Shown in pieces: positions 25,931-36,811 of a DNA stretch of 64,000 nucleotides. Origin of the DNA: Candidatus Defluviicoccus seviourii (GTDB taxonomy: Bacteria; Pseudomonadota; Alphaproteobacteria; Rhodospirillales; Defluviicoccaceae). Position 1 is the stretch's first letter, and each line of letters begins with the position of its first letter. The translations under genes and the position numbers were made by a program. The stretch covers positions 77,278-141,277 of the forward strand of contig UXAT02000012.1 in assembly GCA_900609035.2 (NCBI GenBank), read 5' to 3'. The notes beneath the pieces are model-generated. The model was not told the origin of the DNA and ran no database searches. It saw nothing but the letters and a program-made list of their open reading frames with translations.

Positions 25931-26036
25931 CGCTCAAACGCTCCGTGATTTCCAAGGCTTTGGGGGCAAAAGCCGGCGCCTTCCTTACCTGCGGTGACGC
26001 GGGCCGTCAACCGGGCGCGTGACCGCAGCGACTGCC

Positions 26037-26813
26037 TTAGCGGTTCTGGAAGGCCGGCTTGCGCTTTTCGGCGAACGCATTCATGCCTTCCTTCTGGTCG
26101 GCGGTGGCGAAGATCGAATGGAACAGCCGCCGTTCGAAGCGCATTCCCTCGGAGAGTGGCAGTTCGAACGACCGGTTTACGGACTCCTTGATCATCAGCA
26201 CCATCGGCCGCGACATTTTGCCGATCGTCTCCGCCATCGCGATGGCCTGCTGCACGAGTTCAGCCGCTGGCACAACGCGGCAGACAAGCCCGGCGCGCTC
26301 CGCCTCGTCAGCCTTCATCCGCCGGCCGGTCAGGCACAAATCCATCGCCTTCGCTTTGCCGACTGCGCGGGTGAGGCGCTGCGTGCCGCCGAGGCCGGGA
26401 ATGGCCGCGATCATGATCTCGGGCTGGCCGAATTCGGCTGTATCAGAGGCGATGATCATGTCGCACATCATCGCGAGCTCGCAGCCGCCGCCAAGCGCCA
26501 GACCGGACACGGCCGCAATCACCGGCTTGCGGCACAGCGAGGCCTTTTCCCACTTCACGGTGAGGAAGTCCTCCAGGTAGCAATCCATGAAGGACTTGTC
26601 CTTCATCTCCTTGATATCGGCACCAGCGGCGAAGGCGCGTTCGCTCCCGGTGATGACGATGGCACCGATGGCATCGTCGCCGTCGAACGCATCGAGCGCT
26701 TCGCCCAGCTCCTTCATCAATTGTTGATTCAGCGCGTTCAGTGCCTTGGGTCGATTGAGCGTGATCAGCCCGGCCGTACCGCTGGTCGAAACGGTGATGC
26801 ATTCGTACGTCAT
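26037..26813 (-). CDS. Enoyl-CoA hydratase
   Basis: [41 protein letters not shown]; mutM-ech-rpsT-dnaA order. Confidence 0.93.
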
Positions 26814-26952
26814 ACTTCCCTCCGGTCCCTCTTTGCCGATGTCTTGCGATGGCGGGCCGATCGGCGCCGCGCTTGTAGGCGGCAATTATGGCAAGGGGCC
26901 GCGCCCGCGTACAGCGGCGCGGTGCCGCAGCGCAGCGTAAACTTGCGTCTCT

Positions 26953-27789
26953 CTAAAGCTGCCGACGCGGGCAATAGTAAGTTGCCCGGCCACCCTGCAC
27001 GATGCGCTGTATACCGCCGGCTGCATCCGCATCGCAGGAGCAACCAGGACACGGCCGGCCGGCCCGGTCATAAACGGCGAAGCTGTGCTGGAAGCAGCCC
27101 AACTCGCCCGACGGCTGAACATGATCCTTGAGCGAGGAGCCACCGGCCGCAATCGCCTCAGCAAACACGGCACCGATGGCAGCAGTCAGCCGCGCCAGCC
27201 CACGCGCCGGCACGCTGCCCGCCTCCCGCGCCGGCGACAGCCCGGCTCGGAACAGGCTCTCCGACGCATAGATGTTGCCCATGCCAGCGACCACCGCCTG
27301 ATCCATCAGCGCCATCTTGAGGGCCGAACGCCGGCCGGCAAGGCGGGACCGCAGGTAGGCTGCGGTGAAACCCGCGCTCAACGGATCGACCCCAAGACCG
27401 ACCAGGCGCGGATGCCGATCGATCGCGTCTGCCGCTGCGAGGTCCATGAAGCCGAACCGGCGCGGATCGTGAAACGCGATCTCCATTCCGGCATCGGTGC
27501 CGATGACGAGATGGTCATGGGTCAGGCGGCCGGCGTCCGCCCCGAAGCGAAAGCTGCCCGACATGCCGAGATGGACCAGCCACACCCAGTCGCCCGTCAA
27601 GTTGATGAGCAGGTACTTGCCGCGCCGGTCGATGTCGAGAACGCGCTGCCCCTCGATCCGGCGGCCGAAATCGCGTGGCAGCGGAAACCGCAGGTCTGCC
27701 CGGCGGACGACGACGCGGCTCAGCGACCGGCCAAGGAGGGCAGGCATCAAACCGCGGCGGACGGTCTCGACTTCGGGCAGTTCCGGCAT
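26953..27789 (-). CDS. mutM: Formamidopyrimidine-DNA glycosylase
   Basis: [37 protein letters not shown]-terminal Cys zinc finger. Confidence 0.97.
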
Positions 27790-27836
27790 CGGCGCAAGGT
27801 AGCGCCGCCGCGCGCCTTCCGCTATGGTCCGCTGCC

Positions 27837-28622
27837 ATGTCCCGCACCGACAATCCTAACACCCCGCAGCCAACGGCTACGCCCGCGGAGGAAACCACGC
27901 ATTTTGGGTTTCGTACCGTCGGCGTGACCGAAAAGCCGTCGCTCGTGCGCGATGTCTTTGATAGCGTCGCCACCCGCTACGATCTCATGAACGACCTGAT
28001 GAGCGGCGGCATTCACCGCTTCTGGAAGGCGGCGATGATCGACTGGCTCAACCCACGTCCCGGCATGACGCTCCTGGACGTCGGCGGCGGCACCGGCGAC
28101 ATCGCCTTCCGCTTCCGCGAACGCGGCGGCGGCCCGGTCATCGTGTGCGATGTCAATGCGCCGATGCTGGCCCAGGGCCGCGACCGTGCCATCGACCGCG
28201 GCTTCGTGCGCGAAATTGCCTGGGTCTGCGGCGATGCCGAACGGCTGCCGATCGCCGACGGTGCCGTCGACGCCTATGCGACCGCCTTCTGCCTGCGCAA
28301 TGTCACGCACGTCGATCGGGCGCTTCGAGAGGCGCACCGCGTGCTGAAACCGGGCGGGCGGTTCCTCTGCCTCGAGTTCAGCCGCGTCGCCATGCCGGTA
28401 CTCGACCGCCTCTATGACGCCTACTCCTTCAACGTCCTGCCGCTCTTGGGCCGCTTTGTTGCCGGCAACGCCGAGGCCTATCGCTACTTGGCGGAGAGCA
28501 TTCGCCGGTTCCCGTCGCAGGAGCGGTTCACCGGCATGATCTCGGACGCCGGCCTCGATCTGGTCAAGTACCGCAACCTTTCGGGTGGCATCGTCGCCAT
28601 GCATTCCGCATGGCGGACGTGA
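27837..28622 (+). CDS. ubiE: Ubiquinone/menaquinone C-methyltransferase
   Basis: [46 protein letters not shown]. Confidence 0.96.
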
Positions 28623-28644
28623 TCGCCGCACCGGCGCCGCTGCC

Positions 28645-30177
28645 ATGATCCATCCGCTGCGCAACATGGTACGGCTGGTCGTGCTGGCGCGCACGCTCGC
28701 GCGGCACGATGCCCTGTTCGTGTTCGAGGGCTTGGGATTTGCGCAGCCGCTCGCTGCCGCGGCGCGGCTCGTGTTCTGGAGCCGCGCACCGGGCCGGCCT
28801 GGGCAGCGCCTGGCGCGGGCGCTCAACGAGGCCGGGCCATCGTTCATCAAGCTCGGCCAAGCCCTGTCGACCCGCGCCGACCTGCTGGGCGAGGCGCTGG
28901 CGGCCGACCTCTCCGAACTGCAGGACCGCCTGCCGCCCTTTCCGGGCAGCGTTGCGCGGCAGACCATCGAGACCGAGCTGGGCCAGCCTGTGGAAAGCCT
29001 GTTCCGCTCCTTCGACGATACCCCCATCGCCGCCGCATCGATCGCGCAGGTCCACTTCGCCGTCGACAGCGACGGCCGAGAGGTTGCGGTAAAGGTCTTG
29101 CGGCCGGGGATCGAGCAGGCCCTCAAGCGCGACCTCGACTTGTTCTACTGGGTCGCCGGCCTGATCGAAGCCGCCGTGCCGGCGTGGCGTCGCCTGCGAC
29201 CACGCGAGTCCATCGCTACCTTCGCCGCCACGGTCGAGATGGAGATGGACCTACGGTTCGAAGCGGCGGCCGCCTGCGAACTGGCGGAGAACTTTGCCGG
29301 CAACACGAGCTTCAAGGTGCCGGCCATCGATTGGCGCCGCACCGCCCGCCGCGTGCTGACGAGCGAGCGGATCGCCGGCATCCCGATTGACGAGCGCGAC
29401 GCCTTGATCGCCGCCGGGCACGATCCGGAAGCATTGCTGACGCGCGCGGCGACGATGTTCTTTCTCCAAGTCTTCCGCGATGGCTTCTTTCATGCCGACC
29501 TGCATCCCGGCAACCTGTTCGTCCGCCCCGATGGTTCGATCGCAGCCGTCGACTTCGGCATCATGGGCAGGCTCGACCGCAAGGCGCGCCGGCACCTGGG
29601 CGAGCTCCTGCTGGCCTTCCTCACCCGCAATTATCAGCGCGCGGCCGAGGTCCACTTCGAGGCCGGCTGGATCCCGCAGGATCTCTCGGTTGCCACCTTT
29701 GCCCAGGCTTGCCGCTCGATCGCCGAGCCGATCATGGACAAGCCGCAGAATGAGATCTCGATGGCGCGGCTGCTGGGCCATCTGTTTCAGGTCACTGAGC
29801 AGTTCGCCATGACCACGCAGCCGGAACTCCTGCTGCTGCAGAAGACGATGCTGCTGGCGGAAGGAACCGGGCGCAAGCTGTGCCCGGAAGCGAACATGTG
29901 GTACCTGGCGCGGCCCTTGATCCAGGACTGGGTGGCAGCGAGCTTCGGGCCGGAGCAGCAGCTCCGCCAAGCGGTTGATGACGTCCGCGCCGGCATGGCA
30001 CGCCTGCCGGAGGCGGTCCGACAGGCAGAGCGCGGGTTGAGCGCCCTTGCCGAGGGGACGCTGCGACTGCATCCGGATTCCCTGGCCCGGCTTGGCGGCA
30101 GCCCACGCTGGCAGCCGCCGGCGTGGCTCGCCTGGGCGCTTCTCACGGTGGCTGTCCTCGCGCTGTTGTTCCGCTAA
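28645..30177 (+). CDS. ubiB: Ubiquinone biosynthesis protein kinase-like UbiB
   Basis: FIKLGQALSTR, AAASIAQVH, VAVKVLRP, FFHADLHPGN, DFGIMG. Confidence 0.96.
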   Translation: MIHPLRNMVRLVVLARTLARHDALFVFEGLGFAQPLAAAARLVFWSRAPGRPGQRLARALNEAGPSFIKLGQALSTRADLLGEALAADLSELQDRLPPFPGSVARQTIETELGQPVESLFRSFDDTPIAAASIAQVHFAVDSDGREVAVKVLRPGIEQALKRDLDLFYWVAGLIEAAVPAWRRLRPRESIATFAATVEMEMDLRFEAAAACELAENFAGNTSFKVPAIDWRRTARRVLTSERIAGIPIDERDALIAAGHDPEALLTRAATMFFLQVFRDGFFHADLHPGNLFVRPDGSIAAVDFGIMGRLDRKARRHLGELLLAFLTRNYQRAAEVHFEAGWIPQDLSVATFAQACRSIAEPIMDKPQNEISMARLLGHLFQVTEQFAMTTQPELLLLQKTMLLAEGTGRKLCPEANMWYLARPLIQDWVAASFGPEQQLRQAVDDVRAGMARLPEAVRQAERGLSALAEGTLRLHPDSLARLGGSPRWQPPAWLAWALLTVAVLALLFR

Positions 30178-30322
30178 AGGGACCGGGCCACCGCCCGCAG
30201 CGGTACCCGTGTGCCGCCATGCCGATATGTGCTTTTCGGTTCGCGCCTCCGGTCTGTTCTTGCCTCTGGGCGGGATCGCTCTACAATCAACAACACAGGA
30301 AAAAAGTGAAAACTGGCTGCGT

Positions 30323-31537
30323 ATGTCGCCGCTCGTGGGAAAAAGAATTCTGCTGGTCATTTCCGGTGGGATTGCCGCCTACAAGTGCCTCGAGCTAATC
30401 CGGTCCCTGCGTGCGGCCGGCGCCTCCGTGCGGGCCGTGCTGACGCCGGCGGCAACTCAGTTCGTCACCCCGCTCTCTGTTGCCGCAATTACCGAAGACA
30501 AGGTGTTCAGCGATCTGTTTTCGTTGACTGACGAGAGCGAGATGGGCCACATCCGGCTGTCGCGCGAGGCGGATCTCGTGGTCGTTGCGCCGGCGACCGC
30601 GGACCTGCTGGCTCGTATGGCGGCCGGCATGGCCAACGATCTCGCACTCACCGCTCTCCTTGCTACCGACAAGCCGATCTTGTGCGCGCCGGCCATGAAC
30701 GTGCGCATGTGGGAACATGCGGCAACGCAGGCCAACGTCGTGACGCTGGCCGGCCGCGGCGTCCGCTTCGTCGGGCCGGACGTGGGCGATATGGCCTGCG
30801 GCGAATACGGGCCGGGCCGGATGGCGGAGCCAGACGAGATCCTTGCCGCGATCGCCCAGCATTTCGCCTGCGGCCAGCGCCTTGCCAACCGAAGGGCCCT
30901 GGTCACCAGCGGGCCGACGCGCGAACCGCTCGATCCCGTCCGCTTCTTGAGCAATCGCTCGTCCGGGCGGCAGGGTCATGCCATCGCCGCGGCGCTCGCC
31001 CGCTTCGGGGCTCGGACACAGCTGGTCTCCGGCCCGACAGCACTGCCCGATCCGCCGGCCGTCCAGGTTGTCCACGTGGAAACGGCCCAGCAGATGCTGG
31101 CGGCGTGCGAACAAGCGCTCCCCGTCGATATCGCCGTCTGCGCGGCGGCCGTGAGCGACTGGCGGGCGGCCGAACCGCAGCCGGATAAGATCAAGAAGGA
31201 AGCGGGCGCCGCACCGGAGCCGCTCCGGCTGGTCGAAAACCCGGACATCCTCGCCACCTTGAGCCGCGCCGCAACCCGCCGGCCGACGCTTGTCATCGGC
31301 TTTGCCGCGGAAACCAGCCGCCTTCTCGACAACGCTGTTGAAAAGCGCCGGCGCAAAGGCTGCGACTGGATCCTCGCCAACGACGTATCCGCCGCGACCG
31401 GCACCTTCGGCGGCGAGACCAACGAGGTTCACCTGATCAGCGCCGACGGGACCGAGCTCTGGCCCCGCATGAGCAAGGAAGCGGTCGCCGAGCGTCTCGC
31501 GTTCGCGATCGCCGAAGCCCTGGAGGCTCACCCATGA
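30323..31537 (+). CDS. coaBC: Bifunctional phosphopantothenoylcysteine decarboxylase/synthase
   Basis: [47 protein letters not shown]. Confidence 0.97.
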
Positions 31538-32022
31538 GACCACTGCTCGGTCCCGCGGCTGTCCTCGTCCGCCAGCTGCCACACGGAGCCGGGCTGCCGC
31601 TGCCCTCGTACGCGACGGCGGGCAGCGCCGGCCTTGACTTGGCTGCCGCCGTCGAGGCGCCGATCGAGCTCGCTCCGGGGAGCCGTGCGCTGGTGCCAAC
31701 CGGCATCGCGATCGCCCTGCCGCCGGGCTACGAGGGCCAGGTGCGGCCGCGATCCGGGCTTGCCGCGCGGCACGGCTTAACCGTTCTCAACAGCCCCGGC
31801 ACCATCGACAGCGATTATCGCGGCGAGGTGGCGGTCATCCTGATCAACCTCGGCCAGGCTCCCTTCCGCGTGGAGCGCGGAATGCGGATCGCCCAGCTGG
31901 TGATCGCACCGGTGACAATGGCCCGGCTCTATGCCGTTGCCGAGTTGCCCGGCAGCAGCCGTGGCGAGGGCGGCTTCGGCTCGACCGGGAGCGATGTCAC
32001 CAATGCCGGCGAACCGGCGTAG
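31534..32022 (+). CDS. dut: dUTP pyrophosphatase
   Basis: [42 protein letters not shown]. Confidence 0.98.
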
Positions 32023-32026
32023 CACC

Positions 32027-32482
32027 ATGCTTGGGATGTCACGCAAGGTCCTGTTTGCGATCGAGGCAGTGCTCGATATCGCCTACCATGCCGGCTCGGA
32101 GCCGGTGCAGAGCCGCGAGATCACCCGCCGGCAGGGCATTCCCCGGCGCTACTTGGAACAGGCCCTGCAGAGTCTGGTGCGCGACGGCATCTTAGTCGGC
32201 GTGCGCGGACCGCGCGGCGGCTACCGGCTCGCGCGCGAGCGCCGGCGCATCACCGTGGGCGAGATCGTGCGCGTCGTGCGCCCGGCCGAGAACGAGGATG
32301 ATCCGCTGCAGGACGGCCCGACGTCACCACTTGGCTGCCAGGTGGTGCGACCGTTGTGGCTCGATCTGCAGGGCGAGGTGATGCTGCAACTGAACCGGAT
32401 CACGCTTGACGACTTGTGCGGGCGGGCCAACGCGGCCGGGATCGTCAGCGAAGGCAGACAGGCGATCGACTTCGTCATCTAG
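32027..32482 (+). CDS. Rrf2 family transcriptional regulator, CymR-like
   Basis: Rrf2 wHTH ([30 protein letters not shown]); no IscR three-Cys cluster motif; ends AIDFVI; upstream of cysK. Confidence 0.88.
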
Positions 32483-32577
32483 CTGCAGAGCGTGGTCAAC
32501 GAGGCACGGCGGATGCCCCCAGGCAGCACCGTCACTGGGGGCAGCGGACAACGGAAGTGGAAAGGGAGCGTTGCGAC

Positions 32578-33567
32578 ATGGACGAGACAGCGCAGCAGGC
32601 GCCGGCAGCCGATACCATCGGCCGCGGCCGGATTTTCGACAGCATTCTCGACACGATCGGCAACACGCCGCTGGTGCGGCTGAAAAAGCTCGCCGCCGAT
32701 GCCGGCTGCGTGGCGCAGCTCACGGCCAAGTGCGAATTCTTCAATCCCCTGAGTTCGGTCAAGGACCGCATCGGCTTGTCGATGATCCGCGATGCCGAGG
32801 CAGCCGGTCGGATCAAGCCCGGCACCGTCCTGGTTGAACCGACTTCGGGCAACACTGGCATCGCGCTTGCTTTCGTCTGTGCGGCGCGCGGCTACCGGCT
32901 GATCCTCACGATGCCGGAAAGCATGTCGATCGAGCGGCGCAAGATGCTGGCGCTCCTGGGCGCCGAGATCGTCCTGACGCCGGCCGCCAAGGGCATGTCC
33001 GGTGCCATCGCCCGTGCCGAGGAGATCGTCAAGTCTACGCCAGGCGCCATGATGCCGCAGCAGTTCGCCAACCCGGCCAATCCGGAGATCCATCGCCTCA
33101 CCACGGCGGAGGAAATCTGGCGCGATACCGCCGGCCAAGTCGACGTCATGATTTCCGGCGTCGGCACCGGCGGCACGCTTACGGGGTGCGCCGAGGTGAT
33201 CAAGGCGCGGCGGCCCGGATTCCGCATGGTGGCGGTGGAACCCGAAGACAGCCCCGTGCTTTCGGGCGGTGTACCGGGTCCACACAAGATCCAAGGCATC
33301 GGCGCCGGTTTCATTCCTGCCATTCTCAACACGTCGCTGATCGACGAAATCATCAAGGTCGGCAACGAGACCGCTTTCGCGATGGCGCGCCGGGTGGCGA
33401 AGCTCGAAGGGCTGCCGGTCGGGATCTCGTCTGGCGCTGCGCTCGCAGCCGCGATCGAGGTCGGCCGCCGGCCGGAGATGGCGGGCAAATTGATCGTCGT
33501 CCTCCTGGCATCGTGCGCGGAGCGCTATCTCTCGACGGCCCTGTTTGATGGCATCAGCGTCGAGTAG
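32578..33567 (+). CDS. cysK: Cysteine synthase A (O-acetylserine sulfhydrylase)
   Basis: [17 protein letters not shown] (PLP lysine), [37 protein letters not shown]. Confidence 0.97.
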
Positions 33568-33603
33568 CGGCACCGGCCGATCGGGGCGGAGACCGGGCCG
33601 CTG

Positions 33604-34443
33604 ATGGGCTTGACCGAAGCGCAGATCCAACGCTACGCCCGGCACATCCTCCTGGATGAAATCGGCGGCCACGGCCAGGCCCGCTTGCTCGCATCGCGGG
33701 TCCTGGTCGTCGGTGCCGGCGGCCTGGGCTCACCGTTGCTGATGTATCTTGCTGCCGCCGGCGTCGGCACGATCGGCATCGTCGATAGCGACCAAGTCGA
33801 CTTGAGCAACCTGCAGCGGCAGATCGTCCATCCGACGGCGCGCATCGGCCAAGCCAAGGTCGCAAGCGCGCACGCCACCCTCGCCGCCATCAATCCAGAG
33901 ATCCACATCATCGAGCACGCCCTCCGGCTTGATGCCACCAATGCCGGCAGCATGATCGCCGACTACGACATTGTTGCCGACGGTTCGGATAACTTCCCGA
34001 CCCGCTTCCTCGTCAACGATGCCTGCTTTTTCGGCCGCAAGCCCCTCGTCTCCGGCGCCATTCTGCGTTTCGACGGCCAAGTGGCCACGTTCAAGCCCTA
34101 TGCCGGCGACCCGGATGGTGGCCATCTGCCGTGCTACCGCTGCCTTTACGGCGAACCGCCACCGGCCGGAGAAGTGCCGTCGTGTGCCGAGGCGGGCGTT
34201 CTGGGCTCATTCTGCGGCGTCGTCGGCTCGCTCCAGGCAACGGAGGTGATCAAGGAACTGCTGGGCATCGGCGACAGTCTCGCCGGCTGGCTCGTCATCC
34301 TTGATGCCCTCGGCAGCCGGTTCCGAAAAGTGCGGGTGAAAGCCGATCCGGGCTGCCCCCTGTGCGGCGAGGCGCCAACGATTCGCGGGCTTGAGGCCGA
34401 AGCGGGCGCGGCGGCGGCGGATGCCGCGATCTGCCATGGGTGA
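33604..34443 (+). CDS. moeB: MoeB/ThiF-family sulfur-carrier adenylyltransferase
   Basis: RYARHI, VGAGGLGS, SNLQRQ, DGSDNFPTRF, CYRCL, CAEAGVLG, CPLC. Confidence 0.88.
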   Translation: MGLTEAQIQRYARHILLDEIGGHGQARLLASRVLVVGAGGLGSPLLMYLAAAGVGTIGIVDSDQVDLSNLQRQIVHPTARIGQAKVASAHATLAAINPEIHIIEHALRLDATNAGSMIADYDIVADGSDNFPTRFLVNDACFFGRKPLVSGAILRFDGQVATFKPYAGDPDGGHLPCYRCLYGEPPPAGEVPSCAEAGVLGSFCGVVGSLQATEVIKELLGIGDSLAGWLVILDALGSRFRKVRVKADPGCPLCGEAPTIRGLEAEAGAAAADAAICHG

Positions 34444-34873
34444 CGCCAGCCTGCCGGGGCTGTCGCTCATCGTCTTCTCGGGTCAGTATGAGCGGGTTCA
34501 CTACGCCCTCGTGCTGGCGGCGGCGGCAGCCGCAATCGATCGGCCGGTAACTTTGTTCTTCACCGGCGAGGCGCTTAACGCCTTGCGACCGACCGCAGCA
34601 ACCGGCGCACCCGGCTGGCATGCGCTCGCCGGCAGTGGCGAGCAATCGGCAGCCGCCCTTGACGCCCGTAATGCGTCTCTCGGCGTCGCTACCTTACAGG
34701 ACCTGCTCACCGCGTGCGGCCAGATCGGTGTGCGCTTTCTTGTCTGCGAGATGGGGTTGCGCGCTGCCGAACTGACGACGGCTGACCTCAGGACTGACCT
34801 TGCGCCCGAGTGCGCGGGCGTGGTGACGCTCCTCGCCGAAGCCGGCAGCGACCGCTCGCTGCTGTTCCTCTGA
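34436..34873 (+). CDS. DsrE/DsrF-like protein
   Basis: ALVLAAAAAAIDRPVTLFFTGEAL and VRFLVCEMG patterns; overlaps the moeB end. Confidence 0.7.
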   Translation: MGDASLPGLSLIVFSGQYERVHYALVLAAAAAAIDRPVTLFFTGEALNALRPTAATGAPGWHALAGSGEQSAAALDARNASLGVATLQDLLTACGQIGVRFLVCEMGLRAAELTTADLRTDLAPECAGVVTLLAEAGSDRSLLFL

Positions 34874-34879
34874 TCGAAC

Positions 34880-34998
34880 GTTGGCACGCGGTGCCTGGTG
34901 TCGTGCCGCCTGCGGGAAAGCTCGGAACGGAGGGGAATGAGCCTTCCCGCGTTAAGGGGTCGGGGAGGAAATGGCGAACACACGAAGGGCGTTCGTAA
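34880..34998 (-). ncRNA. Candidate small RNA with C-rich anti-SD motifs
   Basis: Sigma70 promoter points into an ORF-less region; three hairpins; single-stranded UUUCCUCCCC and loop AUUCCCCUCCGUUCC. Boundaries approximate. Confidence 0.45.
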
Positions 34999-35003
34999 GC
35001 GGG

Positions 35004-35032
35004 GCTATATAGGACTATATTCACGTCGTCAA
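35004..35032 (-). promoter_or_regulatory. Sigma70-type promoter (minus strand)
   Basis: TTGACG-N17-TATAGC (with overlapping CTATAT); no credible minus-strand CDS downstream. Confidence 0.6.
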
Positions 35033-35131
35033 CCCTTTTTCCTATACCGACGCGGTTTCTTGACTCGACGGGCGCGCCGGTTTGAGGGTAGCTGTTGCCC
35101 GCCGCAGTGAGGCGCAGGAGGAGATCGCGAC

Positions 35132-35500
35132 GTGTCGAACGTTCAGAGCACGACGGGGGCCGACAAGCTCATCGCTTATCTTGACCGCATGGAGAAGCTG
35201 CTCGACGAGATTGACGGGCTCAAGGACGACCTGAAGGACATGAAGGCGCAGGCCCGCGACGATGGGTTCAACGTCGCCGCCATGCTGCGCCTGGTCGCCA
35301 TCCGCCGCAGCAAGCAGCGCGCCGATCGCGAGAGTGAATTCCTGAACGATCTTGTCCTCTACGCGCATGCCACCGGTACGCCGCTGGACTTCAGTTTCGT
35401 CGAGGAGGACTGGTCACCGCCCGCAAGCCCTAAGCGCACGCCTCCAACGGACAGTGCATCCCCTGAGGAAACGCCGGACCCAGAGCCGGACCGCGATTGA
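35132..35500 (+). CDS. DUF2312/GapR-like nucleoid-associated protein, divergent, acidic Pro-rich tail
   Basis: ADKLIAYLDRMEKLLDEIDGLKDDLKDMKAQARDDGFNVAAMLRLVAIRR follows the GapR pattern; AGGAGGAG RBS before GTG. Confidence 0.72.
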   Translation: MSNVQSTTGADKLIAYLDRMEKLLDEIDGLKDDLKDMKAQARDDGFNVAAMLRLVAIRRSKQRADRESEFLNDLVLYAHATGTPLDFSFVEEDWSPPASPKRTPPTDSASPEETPDPEPDRD

Positions 35501-35638
35501 TACGACCGCAGGCGGCGTTGCCGGTCTAGGGGGTCATGCCGTAGTCTTGGCTGCCGAGCGATCGCGTCAACGGGCGATCGCAGCGATGCGCGCGAATGCC
35601 TGGAGATGCCCAGAAAGGCAGGGGAGACCACCGAGACC

Positions 35639-36811
35639 ATGATCCCGATGCGGACCCTATTGGCCATTGCAGCCCTGTACGGCCTCGCGGTTGCCACCAC
35701 CCCCCTCGCTGCCGCATCGATCAAGATCGGCATGATCACGACGCTCTCTGGCGCTGGCGCCGGCATGGGCGTCGACATCCGTGACGGCTTCAAGCTCGCG
35801 ATCGACCAGCGCGGCGGCAATCTCGGCGGCGTTCCAGTCGAGCTGATCGTCGTCGACGACAGCCAGGACGTCGAGAACGCAAAGGAAATTGCCAACCGGA
35901 TGCTGAAAAGAGACGAGGTTGACATCGTGACCGGCATTATCTGGTCAAACCTCGTGCTTGCCGTCGTCCCCACCGTCACCCGCGCCGGCAAGTTCTACAT
36001 CAGCCCGAATGCCGGCCCGTCGGCGCTCGCCGGCAAGAACTGCCAGCCGAATTTCTTCAATGTCGCGTGGCAGAACGACAATCTGCACGAAGGGATGGGG
36101 CAGTACGTCACAGACAAGGGCTTCAAGAAGCTCTACATCCTGGCGCCCAACTATCCAGGCGGGAAGGATGCGCTCACCGGCTTCAAGCGGTTCTACAAGG
36201 GTGAGATTATAGGCGAGGTCTACACGACCTTGGGTCAGGTCGACTACGCCGCCGAGATCGCCAACCTGCGCGCCGCGAAGCCGGATGCCGCGTATTTTTT
36301 CCTCCCTGGCGGCATGGGCGTGAACTTCGTCAAACAGTACGCGCAGGCCGGCCTGATGCAGGAGATCCCGCTGTTCGGCACCGCCTTTTCCTTCGACGAG
36401 GACATCCTGCGCGCCGTGGGCGAGGCCGCACTCGGTGTCGTCAACACCGGTCAATGGGCGTGGGACTTGGATAATCCCGCCAACAAGGCGTTCGTCGAGG
36501 CGTACCGCAAGGCACACGGCCGCACACCGTCACTCTACGTGAGCCAAGGCTACGAGGCGGCGCTGCTGCTGGACAGCGCGATCACCGCCGTCAAGGGTGA
36601 TCTCTCCAACAGCGATGCCTTCCGTGCCGCGCTCGAGCGGGCCGACTTCCAGTCGGTTCGCGGCGCCTTCCGCTTCAACCACAACCACTTTCCTATTCAG
36701 AACATCTACGCCCGCGAGGTCGTCAAGATCGGCGATGTGGTGACCAACCGCTTGATCGGCACCGTTTTCACCGACCACCAGGACGCCTACGCCGCCCAGT
36801 GCGCGATGTAA
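35639..36811 (+). CDS. ABC transporter substrate-binding protein (LivK/HAAT family)
   Basis: Signal peptide, IKIGMITTLSG, VDDSQ, NAGPSALAG, APNYPGG, FRFNHNHFP. Confidence 0.92.
   Translation: MIPMRTLLAIAALYGLAVATTPLAAASIKIGMITTLSGAGAGMGVDIRDGFKLAIDQRGGNLGGVPVELIVVDDSQDVENAKEIANRMLKRDEVDIVTGIIWSNLVLAVVPTVTRAGKFYISPNAGPSALAGKNCQPNFFNVAWQNDNLHEGMGQYVTDKGFKKLYILAPNYPGGKDALTGFKRFYKGEIIGEVYTTLGQVDYAAEIANLRAAKPDAAYFFLPGGMGVNFVKQYAQAGLMQEIPLFGTAFSFDEDILRAVGEAALGVVNTGQWAWDLDNPANKAFVEAYRKAHGRTPSLYVSQGYEAALLLDSAITAVKGDLSNSDAFRAALERADFQSVRGAFRFNHNHFPIQNIYAREVVKIGDVVTNRLIGTVFTDHQDAYAAQCAM

Follow-up and report, generated by a model that had tools for sequence, protein, structure and literature searches.

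Does a transcription factor of Candidatus Defluviicoccus seviourii use its C-terminal tail to dock into the cysteine synthase encoded next to it? The question is raised by a locus in a 64,000-nucleotide stretch of contig UXAT02000012.1 (positions 77,278 to 141,277 of the forward strand; hereafter the window), where rrf2, encoding a 151-residue Rrf2-family regulator that ends in D-F-V-I, lies just upstream of cysK, encoding O-acetylserine sulfhydrylase A. The source genome, a Defluviicoccus of the Rhodospirillales, has a G+C content of 65%, and its nearest public match is a Defluviicoccus metagenome-assembled genome (MAG) with 99% protein identity. An initial annotation of this DNA had taken the F-x-I terminus for a CysK-docking peptide and had proposed a CymR-like sensor, after the Firmicute regulator CymR. 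Our analysis suggests, with a probability of roughly 0.7, that an Rrf2 regulator docking CysK by means of a D-F-x-I terminus is the best explanation of the locus; we infer the binding, its sensitivity to O-acetylserine (OAS), the direction of transcriptional control and the target genes.

The C-terminal tail and the family of the regulator

The rrf2 reading frame begins with an ATG at 32027, a start that agrees with the N-terminus of homologs (MLxxS[RK]K), and its product ends in ...AIDFVI before the TAG stop codon at 32480-32482, as the initial annotation had read it. A search of 5.8 billion proteins yielded close homologs, and every one of the best 120 matches (71-97% identity) ended in [LI]-D-F-x-I, with LDFSI in 86. 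Position -2 of these close homologs (71% identity or more) was occupied by S, T, V, I, A or N. Among representatives of 50%-identity clusters, the D-[FYW]-x-I end was kept down to approximately 40% identity in essentially all full-length relatives, and the exceptions were mostly fragments or sequences aligning only N-terminally. When 72 class-wide orthologs were anchored at their C-termini, Ile was found at position -1 in all 72, position -3 was F in 60, Y in 11 and W in 1, and Asp occupied position -4 in 65. The corresponding column entropies were 0 bits at -1, 0.72 at -3 and 0.65 at -4, as against 3.1-3.75 bits at -5 to -9.

An AlphaFold2 model of the regulator, built on a 64-sequence alignment, displayed a confident core with a mean predicted local distance difference test score (pLDDT) of 86.5 and a final helix at residues 127-136. 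Residues 137-151 were modeled as coil, with pLDDT below 50 from residue 145 to 151. An invariant Ile and a near-invariant F/Y/W and Asp, standing behind a hypervariable disordered linker, indicate that the tail is not a product of chance. Judged from the alignments and the model together, the tail is predicted to be a short linear motif for docking, tethered by a flexible linker, rather than a structural element. An [FYW]-x-I end is found in only six of the 2,755 open reading frames (ORFs) with high G+C at third codon positions (GC3) in the genome, two of which are likely spurious; the regulator and the sulfate-transporter ATPase CysA are among the six.

The regulator passes the Pfam Rrf2 model (PF02082; 94.9 bits over residues 4-131, cut-off 30) and TIGR00738 (92.3 bits, cut-off 73.3). 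It does not reach the IscR equivalogs TIGR02010 (75.5 bits, cut-off 207.55) and NF008110 (69.8 bits, cut-off 275) or the CymR equivalog NF047409 (57.6 bits, cut-off 195), and it also fails the models for the SUF regulator (36.4 bits, cut-off 110.65), RirA (33 bits, cut-off 193) and NsrR (29.3 bits, cut-off 182). Its cysteines are C104 and C131 only, and C131 alone is conserved (60/72 orthologs). We looked for the three-Cys ligand set of IscR in both the regulator and the homolog alignment and found it absent, which upholds what had been claimed for this protein. Identification as IscR, NsrR, RirA or the SUF regulator was ruled out by the hidden Markov model scores and the missing Cys ligands. 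Through phmmer comparison with the PDB, the regulator matched 4CIC (9e-20) and E. coli IscR (4e-18), and two CymR structures at 2.5e-11 and 1.7e-6. Orthology to CymR was ruled out by the equivalog score, the CymR chains matching more weakly than the IscR chains. On comparative evidence, the proposed likeness to CymR can thus be maintained as a mode of working, and it fails as a statement of family membership, since the regulator is not a CymR ortholog. By its sequence, the protein represents a distinct alphaproteobacterial Rrf2 subfamily, nearer to IscR than to CymR and equipped with a CysE-like tail, that appears to work like CymR.

Databases name the regulator just "Rrf2 family transcriptional regulator", some adding "iron-sulfur cluster assembly". 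A full-text literature search on Rrf2 with cysK, Alphaproteobacteria, moonlighting O-acetylserine sulfhydrylase and CymR found nothing linking this family to CysK; an Azospirillum paper (PMC12811640) does no more than mention an "Rfr2 family regulator" as a neighbor of cysK-A, and a Brucella study treats CysK1 and CysK2 without any regulator.

CysK as the predicted partner

The gene downstream of the regulator, separated from it by the 95 bp that the initial annotation had estimated, encodes a genuine CysK, as its product passes TIGR01139 with 448.6 bits (cut-off 350.95). It is the sole TIGR01139-type CysK of the genome, a second O-acetylserine sulfhydrylase-like gene (contig C34) being of the PRK10717 type. 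Its best PDB match is M. tuberculosis CysK1 (2Q3B/2Q3C/2Q3D; E = 2.3e-126, 64.7% identity over 306 residues), with which it shares identical TSGNT, PQQF, GVGTGGT and GIGAGF active-site segments, TSGNT being the loop that binds the substrate or the peptide carboxylate. In PDB 2Q3C, the active site of CysK1 is occupied by DFSI, a native tetrapeptide that derives from CysE (review PMC9547175). The consensus tail of the regulator family, DFSI, equals this M. tuberculosis CysE tetrapeptide, and the DFVI of the window differs from it solely at the variable position -2.

The initial annotation had also stated that the Ile-ending tail of CymR binds the CysK active site, and this is borne out by published crystal structures, in which the last ten residues of S. 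aureus CymR, EDLDGYMFYI (Kd 25 nM), enter the active site of CysK (bioRxiv 10.1101/2024.09.19.614015). Within that tail, F8-Y9-I10 makes the contact, the Ile binding the Thr/Asn loop through its carboxylate and the aromatic residue lying in a hydrophobic channel (bioRxiv 10.1101/2024.09.19.614015). An exposed Ile-ending tail with a hydrophobic or aromatic residue at -3 is a CymR-type feature that the regulator shares in its ...D-F-V-I.

The classical partner of CysK is CysE. The CysE of this genome (contig C6:53267-54055, minus strand) is a short EpsC-like protein with a long coiled-coil/helical C-terminal extension ending in ...GIGDKARA, and its gene adjoins an IscR-like gene. Devoid of a docking Ile, this CysE does not supply the classical partner tail, which leaves the CysK site free. 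A terminal Ile was absent from approximately 23 of 30 sampled alphaproteobacterial CysE proteins and present in approximately 7.

We extended the comparison to 301 evenly sampled alphaproteobacterial genomes, with orthologs of the regulator accepted at E <= 1e-22 and TIGR01139-grade CysK at E <= 1e-105. Both proteins were encoded by 135 genomes, the regulator only by 6, CysK only by 31 and neither by 129 (counts uncorrected for phylogeny). From this sample 78 ortholog loci were fetched, one of them truncated at a contig end. Of the orthologs from CysK-positive genomes, 71/71 had the tail [FYW]-x-I, as against 0/5 where the genome lacks a TIGR01139-type CysK (Fisher p = 5e-8, uncorrected for the tree). 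Conservation of the terminal Ile, which the initial annotation had left to be checked, was therefore found in 121/121 close homologs and in all 71 of these orthologs. The five tail-less orthologs (loci L146, L149, L171, L172 and L173) ended in PRVVA (Enhydrobacter), SDLAS, SGYAL, SGGQA (Aquibaculum) and ENENE. Their genomes belong to five GTDB families (f67, f139, f6, f34 and f127), each of which has a sampled sister with both CysK and the tail, which points to five independent co-losses of tail and CysK. In one of the CysK-less genomes, cysK is cleanly gone and moeB directly follows the regulator gene. That the tail depends on CysK in evolution, another CymR-type feature, is thus evident in these five genomes. 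Together with the identity of DFSI to the peptide crystallized in CysK1, the loss of the tail in 5/5 CysK-less orthologs supports the view of the F-x-I end as a CysK-docking peptide.

The tail-less regulators of these five loci have also lost an otherwise invariant wing motif, ARERRRI (replaced, for example, by GRDKAYI, ADAREGV or ARASESI). Degeneration of both wing motif and tail suggests that the whole mode of action of the regulator may change after CysK loss, and hints that ARERRRI could be tied to a CysK-dependent function.

The association extends to gene order. Eighty Rhodospirillales loci (including Magnetospirillum, Terasakiella, Magnetovibrio, Caenispirillum and Telmatospirillum) share the order dut-rrf2-cysK-moeB, with cysK directly after rrf2 in 79/79 loci that have downstream DNA and dut directly before it in 76/80. 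Through tblastn, the synteny coaBC-dut-rrf2-cysK-moeB was observed class-wide, cysK lying directly downstream in 60/71 loci. A 40%-identical regulator from a compact genome is found in the order ubiE-ubiB-dut-rrf2-cysK-thiF.

Gene cluster, candidate DNA sites and a second Rrf2 family

The features of the locus are listed in Table 1. The conserved cluster coaBC-dut-rrf2-cysK-moeB (30323-34443) surrounds the regulator gene with those for a cysteine consumer (CoaBC), the cysteine synthase and an enzyme that activates a sulfur carrier. Some lineages lack dut, and rrf2 there directly follows coaBC. Since the end of dut lies only 4 bp from the start of rrf2, the two genes are probably co-transcribed. 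A scan of 31300-33800 detected neither promoters nor terminators, and the spacer showed no sigma-70-like promoter, terminator or AT-rich palindrome; the cluster may therefore form one transcription unit here.

Table 1. Features of the rrf2-cysK locus (window coordinates)
Feature	Coordinates	Strand	Basis or remark
coaBC, phosphopantothenoylcysteine synthetase/decarboxylase	30323..31537	+	ORF; class-wide tblastn synteny; Pfam Flavoprotein and DFP on the L097 equivalent
dut, dUTPase	31534..32022	+	ORF; Pfam dUTPase on the L099 equivalent gene
rrf2, 151-aa Rrf2-family regulator	32027..32482	+	Winged helix-turn-helix (wHTH) and dimerization helix (residues 1-136), linker, tail
Flexible linker, residues 137-147	32435..32467	+	Coil, pLDDT dropping to ~50 and less; high column entropy
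C-terminal docking motif (predicted), D148-F149-V150-I151	32468..32479	+	Family motif D-[FYW]-x-I-COOH
rrf2-cysK spacer, 95 bp	32483..32577	+	Holds a 9-bp GC hairpin and a GGAAAGGGAG Shine-Dalgarno-like run
cysK, O-acetylserine sulfhydrylase A, 329 aa; proposed docking partner	32578..33567	+	TIGR01139, 448.6 bits
moeB/thiF-like sulfur-carrier adenylyltransferase; conserved downstream gene	33604..34443	+	Synteny; Pfam ThiF on the L099 equivalent

The spacer hairpin (32514-32543) consists of a 9-bp GC-rich stem, TGCCCCCAG...CTGGGGGCA, with a 12-nt loop and no T-run; two other Defluviicoccus MAGs conserve it in part. Folding of the spacer gave a structure no more stable than those of shuffled sequences (z = 0.32).

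Among homologs of the regulator, recognition helix and wing hardly vary at all, which points to a conserved DNA target. In the Magnetospirillum group (L072-L093), we observed a 22-bp palindrome, TGTAGTTA-N6-TAACTACA, approximately 20-55 bp upstream of cysK and just before the ribosome-binding site; a related palindrome, TGTAGAAC-N6-GTTCCACA, is found in one distant family. The palindrome TGTAGTTA-N6-TAACTACA was not enriched genome-wide, with 0-2 copies in six Magnetospirillum-group genomes, below the reversed-pattern control. Its extra copies lie near unrelated or loosely sulfur-linked genes, such as a sulfite-reductase-like/rhodanese interval in one genome and the region before fpr. Besides the rrf2-cysK spacers of L072-L093, the palindrome was noted at L215:1501-1522. 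Given the lack of genome-wide enrichment and of a convincing copy in the Defluviicoccus genome itself, we assign no operator to this window.

Elsewhere in the genome, a second Rrf2 paralog (contig C5:52567-53016, minus strand; 149 aa, four Cys) ends in ...LLYDI and lies tail-to-tail with the sulfate transporter operon cysPTWA. Its best specific model is CymR, at 84.8 bits and below the cut-off, and its homologs end in L-x-Y-[DE]-I in 117/120 cases. On this sequence pattern, it represents a second candidate CysK-docking regulator family in Defluviicoccus. The ATPase CysA of the sulfate transporter (contig C5:51383-52528, plus strand) carries a C-terminal extension ending in ...PPAPMWHI; as a family feature this tail was rejected, as it is confined to Defluviicoccus (12/120 homologs) and its meaning is uncertain.

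A broader proposal, tentative and rather doubtful, is that CysK acts as a regulatory hub in Alphaproteobacteria. Two unrelated Rrf2 families would dock to it by an aromatic-x-Ile code: family A with D-F-x-I, no Fe-S ligands and a position beside cysK, and family B with L-x-Y-D-I, four Cys and a position beside the sulfate ABC transporter. CysE would be out of the complex in most lineages, the CysA of Defluviicoccus would have acquired such a tail, and OAS occupancy of CysK would coordinate transcription with sulfate uptake.

Proposed mechanism, alternatives and relation to known systems

We propose the following model for the rrf2 product. The protein (32027-32482) would function as a dimeric Rrf2-type DNA-binding regulator, in which a disordered linker of approximately 12 residues presents the C-terminal D-F-x-I-COOH motif. 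The terminal Ile, with both its carboxylate and its side chain, and the Phe at -3 would insert into the active-site cleft of the neighboring CysK, a docking mode like that of the CysE tail in the cysteine synthase complex and of the CymR tail in Firmicutes, and the regulator dimer would be tethered to CysK via its two tails. OAS would compete for the CysK active site, such that the complex forms at low OAS and dissociates when OAS accumulates; with tail and OAS sharing one site, the presence of the complex would signal the OAS/sulfide state and hence cysteine sufficiency. CysK would thereby serve as the sensor subunit, or "trigger enzyme", that modulates DNA binding by the regulator, and the tail would in turn block CysK. 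From the conservation and co-loss of the motif, we consider docking of the regulator tail into CysK likely. The full CymR-like circuit, from docking through to transcriptional output, is drawn by analogy, and its odds are slightly better than even.

Several observations weigh against this model. Neither the 95-bp spacer nor the surrounding +/-5 kb yielded a candidate operator or promoter, and the Magnetospirillum-group palindrome is without a convincing copy in the Defluviicoccus genome (10 weak matches versus 113 for the control), with none in window positions 26000-36000. The regulator is closer to IscR than to CymR, so that CymR regulatory logic is not simply transferable. It is absent from 31/166 CysK-containing genomes and hence not obligatory for CysK, and 11/71 orthologs are not adjacent to cysK, although these 11 still keep the tail and have cysK elsewhere in their genomes. 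The co-occurrence counts and the Fisher statistic, moreover, ignore phylogeny. Tail and linker also remained below pLDDT 50 in an AlphaFold2 fusion model, which was built on a natural in-frame Rrf2-linker-CysK read-through at L018, a Defluviicoccus locus of 95% identity; stop codons were replaced by Gly, and the 73 rows of the alignment came from 15 in-frame loci plus single-domain rows. That chain has no free C-terminal Ile carboxylate, and the fusion model therefore speaks neither for nor against docking.

A different use of the same contact must also be weighed. The tail might dock CysK mainly as a stoichiometric inhibitor or sequestering partner that replaces the CysE tail, with DNA binding being constitutive or controlled otherwise, for example by Cys131. 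This would agree with the behavior of Ile-ending peptides as competitive CysK inhibitors, the absence of the terminal Ile from the CysE of this genome and from approximately 23/30 of those sampled, the conservation of Cys131 in 60/72 orthologs and the failure to find an operator in this window or genome. However, a low-abundance transcription factor is ill-suited as a stoichiometric inhibitor of an abundant enzyme, and the near-invariant recognition helix and wing indicate a conserved DNA target. In the Magnetospirillum group, the 22-bp palindrome lies immediately before the cysK ribosome-binding site. The degeneration of the ARERRRI wing along with the tail in CysK-less genomes further links DNA-binding features to CysK, and we regard a mainly enzymatic purpose of the docking as unlikely.

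Hydrophobic-x-hydrophobic-COOH is a generic C-terminal recognition motif. The aromatic-x-Ile end, disordered and exposed as it is, might be recognized by something other than CysK, for instance a PDZ-type domain, a C-terminal protease or a degron system, and the CysK link would then reflect no more than shared operon history. This is very improbable in light of the five independent tail losses, which coincide exactly with CysK loss while the regulator gene itself is retained, and of the 11 orthologs that keep the tail away from cysK in genomes encoding CysK elsewhere. The tail is, in addition, identical to a proven CysK ligand, with D at -4 conserved as in the DFSI of M. tuberculosis CysE.

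It is scarcely credible that the regulator is simply an Rrf2 sensor of the IscR-like or thiol-based kind, whose tail packs on its own dimer with no partner protein. Its top equivalog-level matches (75.5 and 69.8 bits) and top PDB matches are indeed to IscR, and many homologs are named "iron-sulfur cluster assembly transcription factor" by JGI. Its scores, however, fall far short of the IscR cut-offs (207.55 and 275), it has no three-Cys ligand set, and the genome already encodes a SUF regulator and, next to cysE, an IscR-like protein. AlphaFold2 leaves the tail unpacked (pLDDT <50) behind a hypervariable linker, and the co-loss with CysK would be left unexplained.

Docking of the regulator to CysK would offer a concrete mechanism, open to testing, for a protein that roughly half of Alphaproteobacteria encode. 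Control of cysteine and sulfur assimilation is poorly defined in this class, home to rhizobia, Brucella relatives and magnetotactic bacteria as well as to wastewater organisms like Defluviicoccus. On the distribution of the tail, about half of Alphaproteobacteria probably sense their cysteine or sulfur status in the fashion of Bacillus, and the solution of an enzyme as sensor subunit, as in Firmicute CymR-CysK, would extend to an Rrf2 lineage closer to IscR. A CysE-identical tail on a regulator would likewise be a clear case of one short docking motif on unrelated proteins, and the joint loss of tail and CysK, five times in nature, is evidence of the type that usually precedes a successful biochemical test.

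Among known systems, IscR (TIGR02010; PDB 4HF1, 4CIC) is the nearest characterized relative by sequence and has the same architecture of wHTH and dimerization helix, whereas the regulator of the window lacks Cys92/98/104-type ligands, lies below the IscR cut-offs, sits in another genomic context and carries a docking motif. The CdiA-CT toxin, with a tail ending in ...GYGI, resembles it in the C-terminal Ile code for CysK docking, but is an unrelated protein and uses the code for toxin activation rather than for regulation. Entry of a C-terminal Ile into the CysK active site is reported for this toxin domain from uropathogenic E. coli (PMC4961446). In the M. tuberculosis CysE-CysK1 pair (2Q3C), the consensus tail DFSI agrees letter for letter and the binding loops of CysK are identical; the tail is borne there by a serine acetyltransferase and here by a transcription factor, and the CysE of this genome, ending in ...GDKARA, cannot dock in this way. 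CymR-CysK of Bacillus subtilis and Staphylococcus aureus (NF047409; PDB 2Y75, 3T8R) likewise combines an Rrf2 fold without the Fe-S ligand set with a tail ending in aromatic-x-Ile (F-Y-I in CymR, F-V-I in the window), and both regulators are genetically tied to cysteine synthesis. The regulator of the window is nevertheless not an ortholog of CymR (57.6 bits, cut-off 195). Its tail is of the CysE-like D-F-S/T/V-I form rather than Y-M-F-Y-I, and its gene belongs to the conserved coaBC-dut-rrf2-cysK-moeB cluster of Alphaproteobacteria.

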